A stretch of DNA of 61,310 nt, counting the filler, from Basidioascus undulatus (lineage: Eukaryota): assembly GCA_000826855.1 (NCBI GenBank). It is 5 parts of 5 records of this genome, joined end to end, with 100 filler letters (N's around TTAATTAATTAA, not from the genome) between each part and the next. Parts side by side here need not be neighbours in the genome. Positions count along the whole stretch, not along the records: positions 36,856 to 49,036 come from JTLS01000938.1; 4 more parts are not named here. One strand, given 5' to 3'. Under the pieces are notes generated by a model. That model ran no database searches. It was not told the DNA's origin and worked only from the letters and a program-made list of their open reading frames with translations. Shown one piece after another: positions 12,190-49,136 of this stretch (within the stretch, counting starts at the first letter, position 1; every line of letters starts with the position of its first letter). A program made the translations under genes and the position numbers.

Positions 12190-12289
12190 NNNNNNNNNNN
12201 NNNNNNNNNNNNNNNNNNNNNNNNNNNNNNNNNTTAATTAATTAANNNNNNNNNNNNNNNNNNNNNNNNNNNNNNNNNNNNNNNNNNNN
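12190..12289. other. Artificial contig linker
   Basis: 44 N + TTAATTAATTAA (stops in all six frames) + 44 N. Confidence 0.98.
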
Positions 12290-24472: not shown

Positions 24473-24572
24473 NNNNNNNNNNNNNNNNNNNNNNNNNNNN
24501 NNNNNNNNNNNNNNNNTTAATTAATTAANNNNNNNNNNNNNNNNNNNNNNNNNNNNNNNNNNNNNNNNNNNN
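24473..24572. other. Artificial contig linker
   Basis: 44 N + TTAATTAATTAA + 44 N. Confidence 0.98.
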
Positions 24573-34812: not shown

Positions 34813-36755
34813 TCACCAATGCGCCGAGTAGATATCCTTGCACACATCCTCCGGCAGCCGCTCGCCAGGGTTGTGGGGAATGAACCCGAGCTCCAGCCCG
34901 CGCTTGTACGACCACTCGGCAGCCTGCTCGTTCTGTCCATCCAACCGTCCACGCACCATCTTTTCTCATCAACGCATACTCAACCTCCTCAAAGAGTAAA
35001 GCGCAACGTACCTTCCAAGTCCAGAAGAACCACCCCTGGCCCGCCAACTCCCACGTCTGGACCCTGTTCCATCGCCCCTCCATCAGTGAGTTTCACCAGG
35101 CAACGGCATGCCAATGACGCAACGCCCAGGGGAGTGACGTACTGCGCATCGTAGAACTTGCGCAAAAAGGACTTGTACGACGCCGAGAAGTCGTCGCCGC
35201 TGCCTGTCTTGCCGGCGCACGACCCGACGGCCGGCGCGCCAGGGTACGTGCCGTCGTGCCGCGAGCCGGTGCGGCGGCCGTTCTATCGAAAGTTGAGAAA
35301 GAAGAACTGAGTGAGCATTGAGGAGCGAGGATGGAGGGAGAGAAGGGGGAGGGGAGGAGGAGCGACGCACGAGGTACAGCGCGCAGTCGGTCGGCGCGAG
35401 GGAGAACTCGCCCACGATCACGGCGTGCGGGGACTCGACGATGTCGTAGAAGCGGTTGCACATGACCTGCAAGCCAACCACCGCACCGAATCAGCCTCCA
35501 TCCGAAGCAAGCGTCCCGAATCAGCCTCCATCCGAAGCAAGCGTCCCAAGGCAACGCACATTGATCCGCTCCTGCTCGCCCATCGCGTTCTCTTGGGGCG
35601 AGAAGACCGAGTAGATGTGCTATCCTCCCCGCCACAAAACAATCAGACTTCCCTTTCCACCGGCCTGCGATCTCGAGCAGAGAAGGTGAAGCGTACCGTA
35701 TCGAGCTGCACGCCGTCGTACCCCTGCGCGGGCGTCATAAAGTCCTTCCACTGGCTAAGCGGCTTAAACGCATCATGAATGACCGTCCGCAGGCCGCGCT
35801 CGTTCGTCACCGTCCGGTACCCCTCGAGGTAGTACTGCCGCGCGGTCTCGACAACCATCTCGTCTATGAACCCCGCCGGCTGGTACCCCCAAGCCCCACT
35901 CAGCTTGGGAAATTGCGGAGAGGGGATAGACAGACGCACCTCATTAACAAGCTCGATAGACTCCACCGCCCCCGCGTACTCCGCGCGCGAAAACTCGCGC
36001 GCAAGGTAGTCGATCACGCGCAGGCTGCGCAGCTTGTTCTGCTCGTCCATGTGCCACGTCGCTTCGCCCCAGTGGCCCGAGTTGTCGAAGCCGTTCTGCC
36101 GGGGCGCACGTGCGCGTTAGGGCCTTCGCCTTCACCAGAGAGGGAGGGAGGGAGGGATAGGGCAGACGGACTTGGGAGCCGGGCACGCCGTGCAGGTCGA
36201 CCCAGACTTTCAGACCGGCCTGTTGAGCGAGACGCGTGAGTCAAAAGCCGGGAAGAAGGATGGGCTGTGCGGAAGGAATGAAAATTAACGTACCGCCGCG
36301 GCCCACTTAACGCCCTGTTTCAAGTACGGCAACTGCCCCGTGCAGTACGGTTCGCCCTCGCCCATCTCCACCGCCCTGCTCATGCGCCTCCCCGTTAGCC
36401 AATCCTCAACCTTCCACACTCAGGCAGGGCGGAGCAAGGGAAGGGGTGGACGTACCAGTACCCCACCGGAATCCTGACATGCGTCAGTCCCGCCTGCCTA
36501 ATTTCCACCAAATCCCGGTACCCATAGAAAGTCTCCCAGTGCTGTGTGATCCGCGCGCGCGCGTCGGCGCGCTCGGCCCGGGAGGAAGCGCCGCACCCGA
36601 ACGTCCATTCGTCGACGGTCGAGGGGGAGGGGAAGAGCGAGGGGGTGATCCATGGCTGGGGAGGAGCGGGGTATTAGCTGCTATGTCATGGGACTATGGG
36701 GAGCGGGAAAAGACGCACCTGAGTCACGCCCAGGTTGAACAGGCCCATAGCAGTC
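34813..36755 (-). CDS. GH5 exo-1,3-beta-glucanase (Exg1-like), 5'-partial
   Basis: GWITPSLF, AGLTHVRIPVGY|W, VWVDLHGVPGSQ|NGFDNSG, IELVNE|P (acid/base Glu), VIVGEFSLAPTDCA (nucleophile Glu), GWFFWTWK. Confidence 0.92.
35486..35547. repeat. Perfect 30-bp tandem duplication inside a glucanase intron
   Basis: CCGAATCAGCCTCCATCCGAAGCAAGCGTC x2 at 35486 and 35516. Confidence 0.95.
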
Positions 36756-36855
36756 NNNNNNNNNNNNNNNNNNNNNNNNNNNNNNNNNNNNNNNNNNNNT
36801 TAATTAATTAANNNNNNNNNNNNNNNNNNNNNNNNNNNNNNNNNNNNNNNNNNNN
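36756..36855. other. Artificial contig linker, followed by a 23-G run at the contig start
   Basis: 44 N + TTAATTAATTAA + 44 N; G run at 36856-36878. Confidence 0.98.
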
Positions 36856-37238
36856 GGGGGGGGGGGGGGGGGGGGGGGCGTGTAGAGATGTAGGATTGTC
36901 GAAAGGAGGGGAACTACTTCAGCTGGCAATGGACGATCTTTCAACACTCTGACAGTCGAGGGCCTCTGTCAAGATGATCAGCAGCCGTTATGTTGTTGTC
37001 TCTGAGTCCTCTCGGTTGACTCCAAAGTTTCTGGCACGAAATCATTCATCGCACCGTACTAGCAGGCACCTGGGTGTGCGAACCGAGAAACAAGTTACAT
37101 TCAGTCCTCACCCGTATCCGCATCCGCGTCTCGCTCTCGCGACTCGCCGCTTGCCCCCTTCTTTCTCTTTCTCTCCCCCAATCCAATCATCTCTCCAAAC
37201 TTCAAGAATCAACCCCTCCTTCACATGCTTTAGCGCGT

Positions 37239-38240
37239 CCTCAGGGTTGCGCTGCTCTACGGAGCTCTCGCGTTTGTTCAGCTCACCGCCACTCTCCGCA
37301 GATTGCTCTGTATCCGCCATCGATGCCCCTGCCCTCCCTCCAAGGTCCAAGTATCAAGACTCTTCAACGGAGAACGAGTGCCTCCTTCGCTCACGCCCTT
37401 TCGCGCCTCCTCAGGGTTGCGCTTTCCCAGGGAGCTGTCGACCAGCTGTCGACCAGCGCATCGCATTTCTTGTGTAACGTACCCACTCTCCGCAGATCTC
37501 TCGATAGGCCACCACAACCTCCATTTGATACATGAAAACAAGTAAAAGCACGAAATATCGAACAAGCCTTTCCCTTCTCGAGCTTCCTCAGGATTGCGCC
37601 GCTCTACAGACTGTCGGACAGCGATCACATCTTGCGTCCGTTCAACTCAACCGCTCTCTGCAGATTGCTCGGAACCCCAGCTTGGTGCCCCTTCAAGACT
37701 AAAGCCCAAATTCAAGGATCAAGAATCTCCGTCTACCCTTCCGTCTTGCGCCACCGCAGTGTCGCGTCGCTCTACGCTGTGTAAGGATCGGCCCTTTCCA
37801 AAGGAAAGGCCAGACTTGGATGGAATCGAACCAGCATCACGTGCACTAACCATTGTGCTACAAGCCCTTATTTGCTGATCTCAGTCCAAGGGTAGACCTC
37901 CGCCCTAACAAGCTGTCTACAGCGCGACTTGGGTCTGTCCCACTCACCCGCTCTCCGCAGACTTCTCGATAGCATATTTCGCTTTTTCTAGCCCAAGTAT
38001 TCAAGGATAAAACTGAAAGGCCTAACAGCTACGCTACTTCCCTCGGTGTTGCGCCGCTTCACGGAGCTGTCAAACAGCGTGTGGATCTTGTGGCTCTCCC
38101 ACTTACCCGCTCTCCGCAGATCTTTCGGTAGCACTCCTGTATTTCCCTTCGCCCAAACCACGAGAAATAAGAGACTAGAAGAAAGACACAACAACTTCTT
38201 GGGCCTCCTCAGGTTGCACCGCTCTACGGAGCTGTCGGAC
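37239..38240 (-). repeat. Six-unit ~170-bp array with two conserved complementary boxes and variable spacers
   Basis: Box 1 (+ strand consensus CCTCAGGGTTGCGCCGCTCTACGGAGCTGTC) starts at 37239, 37409, 37586, 37754, 38041 and 38207. Box 2 (CTCTCCGCAGA) at 37292, 37486, 37654, 37951 and 38110. Confidence 0.9.
37780..37910 (-). mobile_element. 131-bp solo-LTR-like insertion containing a tRNA-like Pol III promoter
   Basis: TGTAAGG...CCTAACA termini; flanks cGCTG / AGCTG (degenerate 5-bp TSD); splits box 1 of array unit 4. Minus-strand A box TAGCACAATGG (37850-37860) and B box GGTTCGATTCC (37822-37832). Confidence 0.8.
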
Positions 38241-38977
38241 TACTCACTGTCAGCAGTTGCCGGCTAATGCGTTGCTGAAGATCGACGGTGCGTTGCCTCG
38301 TATCTTTCCATTGATTTTTCCTCATGTCTGTGCCCTGACAATCTGGGATATGGATACTATACGTGCCATAGGCTGCGAAGGTTGATGAGGGAATCAGGTT
38401 GAAGAAGGCGGGGGCAAGTCGTGGTATGGTGCGTTGTCATGGGTTGGCTCTAAGTGCGGGCACCAGTGCAGTATTGCAATGCGCCCTCACTACTGAGTGA
38501 AGTGCTGTGCAGGAACGAGCTGTTGTTGAAGGGCTGAAAAGGTAGCCATGCCAGTGCTTAATTTGGACTTGTTCTCCGCGGCGACGACTTGCGGAGGGCT
38601 GCAACCCCGCTGCACAGGATCAACCCGGCCGATGCTGTCTGATAAGAGAAGGAGAGTGTATATTTCGGTGTTTTCTGGTTCTTTGCACAAAGAAGTCGAC
38701 GAAAGTGATCTCGGTTGAGGCGGCAAGTTTCCATGCGAGAAGACGCCCCGCAAGTCGATCACTCATCAAGTGCGCACTTTGCAGCCGACCAGCCAGCCGG
38801 CCCATGGGAAAGCCGTTTAGCGTTGCATTCGCCCCTTCGCCTCCTGCCTTCAGTTTCACACTTCGCTTAACGGTACTCTTCGCCCTTTGCATCGCATCTT
38901 GCTGGTCCACGGGGGTGCAGAGCCCCTTTTTTAAACACCACAACCACGGGCGTTCAACACGCTACTCTCGGTCGATA

Positions 38978-41900
38978 ATGGCCTCTCAACACCCGTACGA
39001 TCTTGCCGTCCAGCCTCCACCTGCCCAGCCACAGCCACACCACACCCAGCTCCTCCCCTTCGACCCCACGCGACCTATACTCCCCTCACACGCTGCGCCA
39101 GCCTCGGGCTCGGGCGTGAAGGTGGCCGAGAGCAGGGCGAGGAAGAAGGAGAAGGACGAGGAGGGCGAGGAGGCGGTCAAGCGGCGGAGTACGAAGGGTG
39201 AGTCTACTGGAACGGGGGAGGGGATGGAGGAGGTCGGGCATGAAGACGGAGAAGGACAGAGTACTGAAGTTGGGAGGGGGTGTTCAGCTTGCGATCACTG
39301 TCGGAAGTGCAAGTGCAAGTGCGCGAGACCGGAGGGTCAGACGACCGGCCCGTGCGAGAATTGCATCGCCTCTGGCGTTGGTGCGTCTTCTCTCCCAACA
39401 CTGCTCATAATCTTCACATTACGATGCTAAAATTCCGTGAATCACAGAATGCACTTTCAACGGGGTCAGCAAGAAGCGGTACGGCTCTTCTCCCTGCCTT
39501 CCTCCCGCCCCTCAAGCTCCTCATCTCATCCGCACTCTCTCGCACCTTCCCAGCGGACCACCCAAAGGCTACATTGAGACGCTATCCGACAAGCTGCGCC
39601 GCCTGGAAGACGTCGTCTCCCGCCTGTCTACCCTCCCCGACGCGTCTATCGTGATTGACGCGCTGCGCGAAGACCCCGCGACGGCCGAGCTGCTCGCGCC
39701 CGTGCTCGAGAAGCAACAGCAGGCTGCGGGTGTCGCATCTTCCTCCAAGGCCCCTGGGTCGTCAAGTCCGCGCCAGCGCAGGAGACTCAACAGCGTCGTC
39801 GGCGCTGGGGCGGGGTCGGTCCAGCAGCAGCAGCGGACGGTGGTCGTCCCGCCCGAGATCAGCGATGAGGATCCCACGGACGCGGATTTGGCGGACGTGG
39901 TGGGCCAGCTGAGCTTGGACGAGAACGAGAATCTGCGCTACCACGGAACCGCGAGCGGTGAGTGCTGCATGTCCCCATTCCGGCTTTTATGACACGCGAG
40001 ATCTGATGGCGAGTGTGCGCTGTGCAGGACTTCATCTGATCAGTCAGAACAAGCGGCACGAGGGTGGGATATGGTGCGGCGCATGACTGCTGTGTCATTG
40101 CGCTGGCTGCAGAGCTGACGGCTTGCATTGCAGGCGCCTACCTCGACCTGGTGTATGGCCGGCGTCGCACGAGCTGCCGCAGATGTCGGAGCAAGACGTC
40201 GTCCGCGTCTCGGGGGCGCGGGATGTGCTTCCCGAGCGGCGCGTACAAGAAAACCTGATCGAGCTGTATTTCACATACGTCCACCCTGTGAGCATCGGAA
40301 GCACTATTGTATCCCAGCAGGGTGCTGAGGCTTCTCTCCATACCCCAGGTCTTCTCCGTCATCCACAAGTCCGCCTTCCTCCGCGCCTTCAACGAGTCCA
40401 CCTCCCCGGCAGCCTCCCCCCGGTCCGACGCAGACCCCGAGCCCGTCTCGATCCTCCTCCTCCTCGCGATCTTCTCCCTCGCGAGCCGGTACTCGTCCGT
40501 CGACAGCCCGCAGCCCGCCGTGTTCTGGTCTGCCGGCGTCCGCTACGTCGAGAAGGCCAAGGAGATGATCTACCTCGACAACCCTGCTAGCCGCCTCTCG
40601 TCCGTCCAGGCGCAGCTGCTGCTGACGTACAGGAGCTTGGGCGTGGGCGACATGAAGGCTGGATGGCTGTTCTTGGGCGCGGCGGTGCGGATGGTAAGTT
40701 CGGGCTTGGTCGTGCTGCTGTATGTGGGATGGAATATGGGATCGTTGCTGATGGATTGGGAATGGGACATCGAACGCAGGCGGAGGACATAGGCTTGCAT
40801 CGCGATGTGGCGAAGTACGTCCCTGTCGGCAAGGCTCGGATAGGTCCCGAAGAGATGGAAGCTCGCAAGCGAAGTGCGTCTCCAGTCCGTTTTGCGCTTC
40901 TCCGCGGCTGCAGCTAATCATCAACCGCGCGCGCGCGCAGCATGGCACTGCTGCGTCGTGCTCGACACGTACGTCTCGAGCTTCATCGGCCGGCCGACCG
41001 CAATCCACTACAGCGACCACGATACGCGACTGGCCTCCGAGGGCGAGGTACGTTCCGGAGCTTTCTCATTCCTAGGAGCCACATCGCTCGACTGACGTGG
41101 GAGCGCGCTGCAGATCGAGGAGCACGAAGCGTGGCAGCCGATCGAGGCGCACGTCAGCTGCACGCGCGACGCCTGCAGCCTCAACGACCCGGACAACCTC
41201 TTCAACTGGTCCGTCCCGCAGACGAGCCACGCCCTGTCGTGCTTCAACCGCTTTGCCACCCTCTGTGCGTGTCACCTTATGCCTTCCTCCTCCGTCTCGC
41301 TGAACCGTGGTGTGGGCTCGGACACGACAGCTACGTTGCAAGCGCGCATACTGGAAAAGATCTACAACATCCGCGGGCGCCCGTCCGGCCAGCCGGGCGA
41401 GCAGATCTTGACCTACTTCGATCAGGCGCTGTCGCGCTGGTTCTTGGACCTCCCGCCGTACCTCAAGTACCAGCCCACTGCCGAGCGTCTGCCCCCGCCG
41501 CATATCCTCTCGCTGGTGCGCGCTCATGCTGATCGGTGCGACTGGCGGATCAACGAAGCTCACGAAGTGGACGGTCGGATAGCATTGCGCATTCTACTGC
41601 ACTCTCAATCTCCTCCACCGACCCTTGTGAGTTGCGCGTCCGCTTGTCCTGCCCTGGACGAGACTCATGCGTTTGGCCTCGCACAGCATCCCTCCGCGCG
41701 GCACCGCTGGAGCGACGTCCGCTTTTCCATCGCACGCTATTGCGACGTTCGCAGCCAACAGCATTACGAGCATTGGTACGTTGCTCCATCTGTGCGATGA
41801 GGCAGAAGCAATTTTGCGGGTGTTGATGGGAGGCGTGCGGCTTCGCAGTGACGACACTCGAGCGCCGGCACGGATTTCTCAAAAAGAGCCCGGCGACGCT

Positions 41901-42993
41901 CATCTACTACATCTTCACCGCCGGCGTCATGCACTGCTTCAACTTGAGCTACCCGGACCTCGAGATCGTCGCGCGCACGAATCTCAAGCGGACGATGGAC
42001 GCCCTGCGCGGGATGGAGGTGCGTCGGCTCATTCATTGCTTGAACCTCAGGTTCAAGTGAATAACTGGCAACTTTGACCGCTTTGGCTTGACAGCTTGTC
42101 TGGCCCGCCGCCGGCCGCTCGCACGATCTCCTCGCCGGTCTCGTCGACCTACGCGAGCCCGACCTCGTCCAGCACGCGGCCGGTCCGCGCGGGATCAAGC
42201 GCGTGGGGGACACACCCGACGACGGCGCGCCGTACCGCTTCGGCACGAGCTCTTCTGCTGCCGTGTTGCCCACTTCCATCCCCGCTTCGGCGTTTGCCCC
42301 GCCTCCGCAGCCGCTGCGCCAGCCGCCGCCGCGCCCGCAACCGCAGCAGATGTCGGCGAGCCCGACGCTCGGTGCGGGAATCCCAAGCCCCTCTGCGCCC
42401 GTGCAATTCGGCCAGCACCAGCGCGACTCGTCCTTCGACGGCGGCAGCGCGAATGGCCGTGCACCGCCCGCGTCGCTCGCGCAGATGTCGCCCGTCGGCT
42501 CATACGAGTCTGCTCGCTCGTTCGCATACCCCTCACGGCCGGCGGGACCGTCGCAAAGCCCGCTGCAACAGCAGCCGCAGCAACAACAGCAGTCCCCACC
42601 TCAGCCGCAACAGCAGCAGCCACAGCCTCCTCCAAACGAGTACGCGATCGCGTACCCGCTCCCGCTTGCCGCGACGGATGGGGACGGCGCGTGGGCGCCG
42701 TTCCTGCAGAACCAGGGCGTCGCCGAGCTGCAGTGGACGGGCTACCCCGCCCAGCCAGCCGCGCAGGCACCGCAACAGCACCAAGCGCACGCCGACTTGA
42801 ACGCCGTGCTCTTTGGCCATCATCCGTCCGGCCCGCACGGGCTCGATGGAGGCATGGGAGGCGTCCAGGATGGCTCTGCGCTGCCAGGGTCGCATGAACT
42901 GCTCGGTGCGTCGATTTCCGTGCGCGTTCAACGGACTACAGGCCAGCTCCGCTTACTCTTGGTCCAACAGGCGTCCACCGCGTTCCGCAATAG
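38978..42993 (+). CDS. Zn(II)2Cys6 transcription factor with fungal-specific TF domain
   Basis: ACDHCRKCKCKCARPEGQTTGPCENCIASGV|ECTF, GPPKGYIE, LIELYFTYVHP, GAAVRM|AEDIGLHRD, WHCCVVLDTYVSSFIGRP. Gln/Pro-rich C-terminus. Confidence 0.92.
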
Positions 42994-43871
42994 CACAACA
43001 GGTCGTTACCAGCTTTTTGATTCTTCCTTCCTTAAATGATTTACATGTCCTTTTCTTCTCCGCTTGACTTTCCTCGTCGCACACTCGCTACGCTTTTGGG
43101 ATCAGATGTTGTACTTTCGATACACGCCGCTTTCATCGCATGTCTTCTCATCGCGTGATAGCGCCGTGACCTTCCATCGCTGAACTGAAAAGACCCAACG
43201 CGCCGGAAATGTTCAAGGCACTGTCTCAGGCCATGATTTGCCTCCGAGAATGCTCGGCGGCCAGCCACTGATGATCACGATGAGGCGTGGGGGCGGGAGC
43301 GTCGCCGATCAGCCATCAGCCAGACCACACTCGCTACTCCACTTGTCACCCGCAAATGTGGCAAGGTCGTTCTTCAGTACACCGTTGAGAACGTGCAGAG
43401 AGCCCTCGCCACCTCGTGATAGACGGACCGCTCCACCCCGACAGCACCAACAGCGCGACCTCGCTCATCGCAGTCTTTTGGGAGGGTCCTTGGTCTGTCT
43501 CGTGCAGCCTTTGGAACATTTTTCGTACTCTATCTTGCGATCCTAATTTGCGGTTGGGTCTTACGTCGCGGTAGGCCAACAATGTATGAGAACACTATCA
43601 ACCGGAGCGCCCCGCAAGACGACGTCATTGCGAGAAGACGCACCTTCTCGCACTCCTCACCTCTCGACGCTCCGTCTGGCCCCCGATTCGCCTACGTAAA
43701 GACCGAGAAGGCCTTTTCGCTCCACTGATTTCCATCACTTCCACATTAGGCACTGGCCGCCCCAGCTTCTTGACTTTCTTCCACTACAATCACCCACGAC
43801 CACCCAGAACGACTAGACCTCCCTCAACGACACTCCCGTATCCTTCCTTCCTCACTTAGCTGTAGACAACC

Positions 43872-49036: not shown

Positions 49037-49136
49037 NNNNNNNNNNNNNNNNNNNNNNNNNNNNNNNNNNNNNNNNNNNNTTAATTAATTAANNNNNNNN
49101 NNNNNNNNNNNNNNNNNNNNNNNNNNNNNNNNNNNN
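49037..49136. other. Artificial contig linker
   Basis: 44 N + TTAATTAATTAA + 44 N. Confidence 0.98.

Follow-up and report, generated by a model that had tools for sequence, protein, structure and literature searches.

The 61,310-base window of Basidioascus undulatus DNA analysed here contains, near the start of a fungal contig (36856-49036), a tandem array in which short conserved boxes alternate with strongly variable stretches, and the question that this locus raises is what such an array is, or once was. A first-pass annotation had offered two answers: a polycistronic array of structured RNA or single-stranded DNA with conserved processing hairpins and variable cargo, or a decayed precursor of Kex2-processed peptides.

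Genomic context of the array

The window consists of five contigs of ~12.18 kb each that are joined by four linkers, so that adjoining regions of the window are not genomic neighbours. On its own contig, the array is followed by a divergently oriented gene for a Zn2Cys6 / Fungal_trans transcription factor, then by a HAD-type hydrolase and then by a peroxiredoxin; the array ends ~620 bp away from where the transcript contig of this transcription factor has its 5' end. No peptide-tailoring gene was found among the 71 ORF translations of the contig. The coordinates of all features are collected in Table 1.

Table 1. Features of the array and its surroundings (positions in the window)
Feature	Position	Strand	Remarks
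Linkers between contigs	12190-12289, 24473-24572, 36756-36855, 49037-49136		N44 + TTAATTAATTAA + N44
Whole tandem array	37108-38259	-	Six units; unit 3 is two broken units
Box A, unit 2	38107-38120	-	Reads S-A-E-S-G(1,2)
Box A, other exact copies	37948-37961, 37651-37664, 37483-37496, 37289-37302	-	
Box A, degenerate copy	38248-38259	-	
Box B, unit 2	38036-38066	-	Reads S-V-K-R-R-N-T-E-G
Box B, other copies	38202-38231, 37751-37778, 37581-37610, 37404-37434, 37234-37264	-	
Box B, partial extra copy	37900-37912	-	Profile extends into partial box B
GT..CAG segment, unit 1	38232-38247	-	16 nt
GTAAGT..GACAG segment, unit 2	38067-38106	-	40 nt
GT..CAG segment	37913-37947	-	35 nt
GT..CAG segment, unit 4	37611-37650	-	40 nt; starts with TT, not GT
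GT..CAG segment, unit 5	37435-37482	-	48 nt, with 11-nt tandem duplication
GT..CAG segment, unit 6	37265-37286	-	22 nt
Exon-like unit, unit 4	37483-37610	-	42 codons; no other unit has a single open frame between box B and box A
Core of dispersed short element	37800-37874	-	Inside unit 3
tRNA-like sequence, 57 nt	37811-37867	-	Rfam RF00005
Zn2Cys6 / Fungal_trans transcription factor gene	38861-43039	+	Divergent neighbour of the array; spliced X3 contigs

Three further observations concern the surroundings. The contig opens with a run of 23 G (36856-36878); the corresponding contig of run X1 begins at 36882, and that of run X2 extends 1,127 bases beyond the contig start at 36856 with letters other than the G run, which is probably an assembly or sequencing end artefact. 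On the plus strand opposite the array (36953-37545) lie three overlapping ORFs of 103-174 codons, of which those of 171 and 174 codons have no Pfam match; they look like a composition artefact of a strand that is 34% C and stop-poor in all frames. Another contig of the window carries a perfect 30-nt tandem duplication at 35486-35547 (2.1 copies, 100% matches; Tandem Repeats Finder).

Architecture and conservation of the units

Box A (TCTGCRGAGAGYGG) has five exact matches in the window, all of them on the minus strand and inside the array; the other four of the nine listed matches contain two mismatches each and lie outside it. The box B tail (GCGCAAYNCYGAGG) has four exact matches in the window, again all inside the array, which ends in a TGA (37108-37110) in the box-B frame of the last unit. 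A repeat search yielded spacings of 170, 177, 455 (168 + 287) and 165 for box B, and of 194, 168, 297 and 159 for box A. Exact matches and repeat search thus place the six units at the positions and spacings described in the first-pass annotation. A profile of four units produced six hits at E<1e-6, all confined to the array, and four weak hits (E 2.1-6.8) elsewhere in the window. The six-unit description needs amending at two places: in unit 1 box A is degenerate and the GT..CAG segment is reduced to 16 nt, and unit 3, which has a partial extra box B ahead of an insertion, is really two broken units. When the duplicated box B was considered as a target-site duplication or as a second unit, the pairwise scores were not above those of shuffles.

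Mean pairwise identity is 93% in box A, 69% in box B, 50-60% in the GT..CAG segment and 54% in the spacer, as compared with 48% in a shuffled-spacer control. These values indicate that the units are old and that the degree of conservation varies strongly along the unit. Neutral decay alone, acting uniformly, cannot yield 93% and 54% identity inside one unit, and the uneven pattern requires past constraint on the boxes.

Pairing potential of the boxes

In the consensus, a self-complementary stem of 9+4 bp brackets the GT..CAG segment and includes a G-U pair on the minus strand only. The G-U pair, the AGCG/CGCT pairing and the single matched G-C to A-U change (unit 37603-37664) are all present as annotated, and the matched change is indeed also of CpG type: in the coding frame it amounts to two synonymous CpG transitions. 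Polycistronic small-RNA precursors with processing hairpins are known, for instance the yeast snoRNA clusters that are cut by RNase III, and the array resembles these in that short conserved boxes alternate with variable stretches of 74-101 nt. A structured RNA or single-stranded DNA array would also fit the pairing itself, as 85.5% of cells in the six-unit alignment pair as opposed to 37-57% when the partner is slid, and a tRNA-like element in one unit that could in principle act as a processing signal.

The controls argue against such an array. Fold z-scores of the box regions range from -1.81 to +0.85 on either strand, and the 9+4 bp stem is the minimum-energy fold in two of four minus-strand units. 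Shuffling of the 3' partners leaves pairing at 85.1%, with 248 of 500 shuffles reaching the observed 85.5%; the covariation score of the stem in the same alignment is reached by 125 of 500 shuffles, and its single double-sided change, the one with the synonymous reading given above, by 144 of 500. Rfam at E<=10 over the region returned the tRNA-like insert and one chance lncRNA hit only, and neither C/D nor H/ACA snoRNA boxes were seen by eye in the spacers, which had no Rfam hit either. In these boxes, Rfam match, fold signal and covariation the array is unlike the yeast clusters, and its tRNA-like element is a dispersed insert found in one unit only. With folding no better than in shuffles, with pairing and covariation equal to the shuffled control, and with no Rfam family apart from these two hits, we regard the hairpin array of the first-pass annotation as unsupported and very unlikely.

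The GT..CAG segments resemble short introns

The segments between box A and box B start with GT in five of six units and end with AG in all six. Their 5' ends (GTAAGT, GTGAGT, GTACGT and GTGAGC) resemble the 5' splice sites of six RNA-supported local introns (GTGAGT, GTGCGT, GTACGG, GTGAGT, GTGCGG and GTGAGC). The latter were obtained from run X3, which is labelled 'DNA?' and behaves as RNA: its contigs skip six GT..AG stretches of 60, 61, 67, 70, 75 and 90 nt on the plus strand (38861-40433), within the transcription factor gene. No RNA run is listed as carrying the stretch, and there are no X3 contigs over 36857-38808; neither point gives evidence either way on expression or splicing of the array. 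The array segments differ from the local introns in size, being 35-40 nt where whole (16-48 nt overall) versus 60-90 nt, and in the CTRA motif, which is found 15-25 nt before the 3' CAG in five of six local introns and in none of the four full-length array segments. Short length and a missing branch motif, the two features that the first-pass annotation had held against introns, are thus both borne out.

Splicing at GG/GTRAGT...GACAG/C would join the boxes in frame at every two-box junction; reading through the segment stays in frame at one or two of five junctions, and in three of five units the S-A-E-S-G frame meets a stop at the very beginning of the segment. Of nine measured unit periods, six can be divided by three (box A: 159, 297 and 168; box B: 165, 168 and 177). 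In unit 5, an 11-nt sequence (AGCTGTCGACC) repeated 2.3 times at 37433-37457 has lengthened the segment from 37 to 48 nt, which puts it in frame. We rate the version with putative introns above the read-through version.

Internal repeats of genes can arise by tandem duplication of an exon plus an intron. The unit of the array is like such a duplication in that it combines an exon with an intron-like segment whose ends are conserved and whose interior is 50-60% identical, and unlike it in that these putatively spliced segments are 35-40 nt long and lack the local branch motif. A model on the plus strand, in which the boxes would be introns of 56-80 nt with a CTYAC branch and a 3' CAG, was rejected: the 5' site would be GTTGCG, without the G at +5 that all six local introns have, and the exons do not agree in frame.

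Coding signals in the array

The reading frame tested for the boxes is ...E-x-S-A-E-S-G/S-V-E-R-R-N-P-E-E-A, the slash marking the position of the GT..CAG segment. Among 52 box differences from the consensus, 23 are synonymous as compared with ~14.5 expected from the observed 32 transitions and 20 transversions, and 23 fall at third positions; in unit 4 all five box changes are synonymous. This excess is partly confounded by CpG transitions and by the shared ancestry of the units. In the variable parts, the box-B frame contains two stops in 180 codons versus eight in each of the other frames, and shuffles give 10.7 (P=0.0008, before correction for three frames). Synonymous excess and stop depletion moderately support a coding origin, the synonymous signal being graded as moderate since the cells are not independent and several of the changes are CpG transitions.

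Between box B and box A, units 3 and 4 have exon-like lengths that preserve the frame, as does unit 1 if an evident 1-nt deletion in its box B is taken into account. One frameshift each has to be assumed for units 2 and 5, and the translations to both sides of it resemble those of other units. The longest minus-strand ORF over the array has 122 codons. If the GT..CAG segments are taken out in silico, four of six units have a dibasic pair at a common position (KRR, RR, RR and KR); it is lost in unit 1 (RC) and unit 6 (QR). N-P follows RR in three of six units, and the next pair is E-E or E-D rather than X-A or X-P.

Codon composition points the other way. The proposed frame has an overall GC3 of 0.54-0.57; its variable parts have 0.51, with values of 0.48/0.48/0.51 for GC by codon position. 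The neighbouring genes reach 0.75-0.89 (transcription factor) and 0.78-0.88 (domain-matched segments of the HAD and peroxiredoxin genes). This local bias would still be expected in an ordinary gene that had died recently, and the array is flat. A Met-initiated hydrophobic leader joined to the array was not seen in a three-frame translation of the 600 nt upstream, judged by eye. The decayed Kex2-type precursor of the first-pass annotation fits better than the hairpin array: it has in its favour the synonymous excess, the stop depletion in the box-B frame and dibasic sites in four of six units, and against it atypical introns, flat GC3, the lack of a signal peptide by eye and the failure to find an intact homologue.

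Decay of the locus and the insertion in unit 3

The array locus cannot yield a repeat protein now. It contains two in-frame stops and at least three frameshifts, which agrees with the annotated stops and frameshifts in the spacers, and it has neither a start codon nor a signal peptide (leader judged by eye). Further damage consists of a GT-to-TT change in unit 4, the 11-nt duplication in unit 5, segments of which only 16 nt (unit 1) and 22 nt (unit 6) are left, and the insertion of a tRNA-like short element in unit 3. A RIP signature is absent, the indices of 0.83 and 1.21 not being RIP-like.

The annotated 131-bp insertion is present in unit 3 and is more than a plain insertion, since it holds a 57-nt tRNA-like sequence without an anticodon arm. 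This sequence matches Rfam tRNA (RF00005) with 39.8 bits (gathering score 29); its acceptor, D and T arms are intact, 15 model positions are skipped at the anticodon arm, and ARAGORN reports no tRNA gene on the insert. Two other contigs of the same genome match the core of the element with 6 differences in 75 and no gaps, and in their 3' flanks another short stretch is, by eye, common to them and this copy. The matching copies identify the insert as a dispersed tRNA-like element and not as part of the repeat design; it may represent a small family of tRNA-derived retroposons. Like tRNA-derived short interspersed elements, it has a tRNA-like head, dispersed copies and a partly common 3' tail; unlike them, it lacks the anticodon arm and its shared core is only ~75-110 nt. 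No clear target-site duplication was found around the insert, scores not being above those of shuffles.

Comparison with known proteins and repeat-peptide precursors

No protein relative of the 122-codon ORF was found by phmmer among 1.84 billion representatives or in Pfam, and word-indexed searches at near, longer and shorter lengths gave 45, 339 and 2 candidates, none with E<=10. In metagenome contigs, the strict pattern of box A plus box B had 0 matches, and a looser 20-mer had seven, all of them single chance matches without box B or an array. Neither the intact homologue nor the homologous arrays called for by the first-pass annotation were thus recovered; for arrays, this absence is weak evidence, its scope being metagenome contigs.

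Repeat proteins processed by Kex2, of which Candida Ece1 and Ustilago Rep1 are examples, offer the closest comparison. As described in PMC7329392, the KEP class combines an N-terminal ER signal peptide with repeats between KR/RR/KK sites. Kex2-processed repeat proteins treated there and in PMC6339444 include precursors of the alpha-factor-pheromone and ustiloxin types, and in pheromone-like KEPs the cut is followed by X-A/X-P dipeptides as a STE13 signature (PMC6339444). The array shares with KEPs tandem peptide units between dibasic KR/RR sites, found here in four of six units, an acidic stretch after the cut, and variation in both repeat number and core sequence. The N-P that follows RR in three units may correspond to an X-P dipeptide of the STE13 kind, the pair after it being E-E or E-D. 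It is unlike them in that an ER signal peptide was not seen by eye in the 600 nt upstream and no intact ORF runs across the repeats, which are broken by the stops, the frameshifts and the inserted element. Moreover, its units would be ~42 residues long, with cores much more divergent than the linkers, the searches found no sequence relative, and every unit would hold its own tiny intron. The main texts of PMC7329392 and PMC6339444 do not contain the word 'intron', and that of PMC9769878 contains one irrelevant use.

A possible second array in the genome

A genomic contig of 107 nt in run X1 and 135 nt in run X2 matches 37631-37670, which comprises box A and the start of the intron-like segment, with 7 differences in 40. 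One of its loose ends carries a box-B-like string and the other a spacer-like string. Its word depth is 42.8 versus 17.4 for the array contig in X1, and 121.7 versus 41.2 in X2; a depth 2.5-3 times that of the array contig is not a copy number, and together with the array-like match it is what a collapsed near-identical repeat would give. These observations suggest that the genome holds, at another place, a second array that is more uniform and may be a live gene. In this contig, G or C is the last base of eight of the ten codons that precede box A, read in frame with box A (by eye), a weak hint that the paralogous array would have normal codon bias.

Origin of the array

We tentatively prefer, as the best though by no means secure explanation, to see in the array the decayed and no longer active copy of a Kex2-type repeat-peptide gene that is lineage-specific and had units made up of an exon and a mini-intron each. 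From the sequence we infer a coding origin, splicing and Kex2 processing. The original unit of ~165 bp would have comprised one exon of 126-129 nt and a phase-2 intron of 35-40 nt. The exon would encode the tail of one peptide with its dibasic site (S-V-E-R-R, V-K-R-R or L-G-K-R), followed by N-P-E-E-A and a variable, aromatic-rich core of ~25-30 residues, and would end in the conserved acidic E-x-S-A-E-S-G. Tandem duplication of exon plus intron would have generated the units; selection may then have kept the linker boxes while the cores diverged. A more specific version, which we consider distinctly improbable, envisages a family of mini-intron genes in which the paralogous array works and the present locus is its decaying copy. 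Introns of 35-40 nt would be far below the usual size in this genome and devoid of a normal branch site, and the 9+4 bp complementarity of the exon ends would form a stem that brings the splice sites together and allows splicing.

Flat GC3 and atypical introns keep two other readings of the array in play. The one that carries more weight, though it is still rather unlikely, is a non-coding, minisatellite-like tandem repeat upstream of the transcription factor gene, its box either serving as DNA, for instance by binding a protein, or having no function, and its coding-like signals reflecting chance and CpG bias. Near-equal GC at the three codon positions of the variable parts, the short distance to the transcription factor transcript contig and the failure to find a start, a signal peptide (by eye) or a homologue all fit such a repeat. 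It leaves unexplained that stops are depleted in one frame only and that synonymous changes are in excess, and neutral decay alone does not produce the difference between box A and spacer. CGG and CCG triplets are the usual half-sites of Zn2Cys6 proteins, and an array of Zn2Cys6 binding sites was rejected, as these triplets are not enriched (26.9 per kb in the array versus 43.5 per kb over the remaining contig), and just two units contain CGG-N4-CGG. The other reading is a decayed coding repeat of 52-59 codons without introns, in which GTRAGT..GACAG was translated (G-K/E-W ... D-S-S). The unit periods that are multiples of three, an 84-codon frame that leads from unit 1 across the segment of unit 2, and the 122-codon ORF, which passes through the segment of unit 5, speak for it. 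We nevertheless consider it unlikely: segment lengths of 40, 35, 40 and 37 nt (the last before the duplication) are not multiples of three, units 2, 3 and 5 would each have box A in a different frame, the S-A-E-S-G frame runs into a stop where the segment begins in three of five units, and the changes in box A are synonymous only in the frame that requires splicing.

That the array is itself a live gene, transcribed and spliced at unusually short introns, perhaps with the help of an exon-exon stem, into several smaller peptide products, is the least credible of the readings. Three exon-like units are open in the box-B frame and the splice-site-like ends are conserved, which would suit a functional gene; against this, no frame survives across more than two units in any splicing scheme tried, a start codon with a leader is missing, one segment no longer begins with GT and two others are down to 16 and 22 nt.

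What the pairing controls teach in practice is that the self-complementarity of a tandem-repeat consensus does not count as evidence for an RNA structure. If the repeat were non-coding, there would be little wider consequence. If the array is what we prefer to see in it, a decayed copy of a repeat-peptide gene, it would add one more lineage-specific family of repeat-peptide precursors, unusual in having one tiny intron per repeat. A dead copy alongside a probable live paralogue would bear on how such genes expand when exon and intron are duplicated together and how they then die, and the paralogous array would be a concrete target for peptide discovery. The locus is probably of modest interest, except if the paralogue turned out to be a live gene that splices introns of 35-40 nt.
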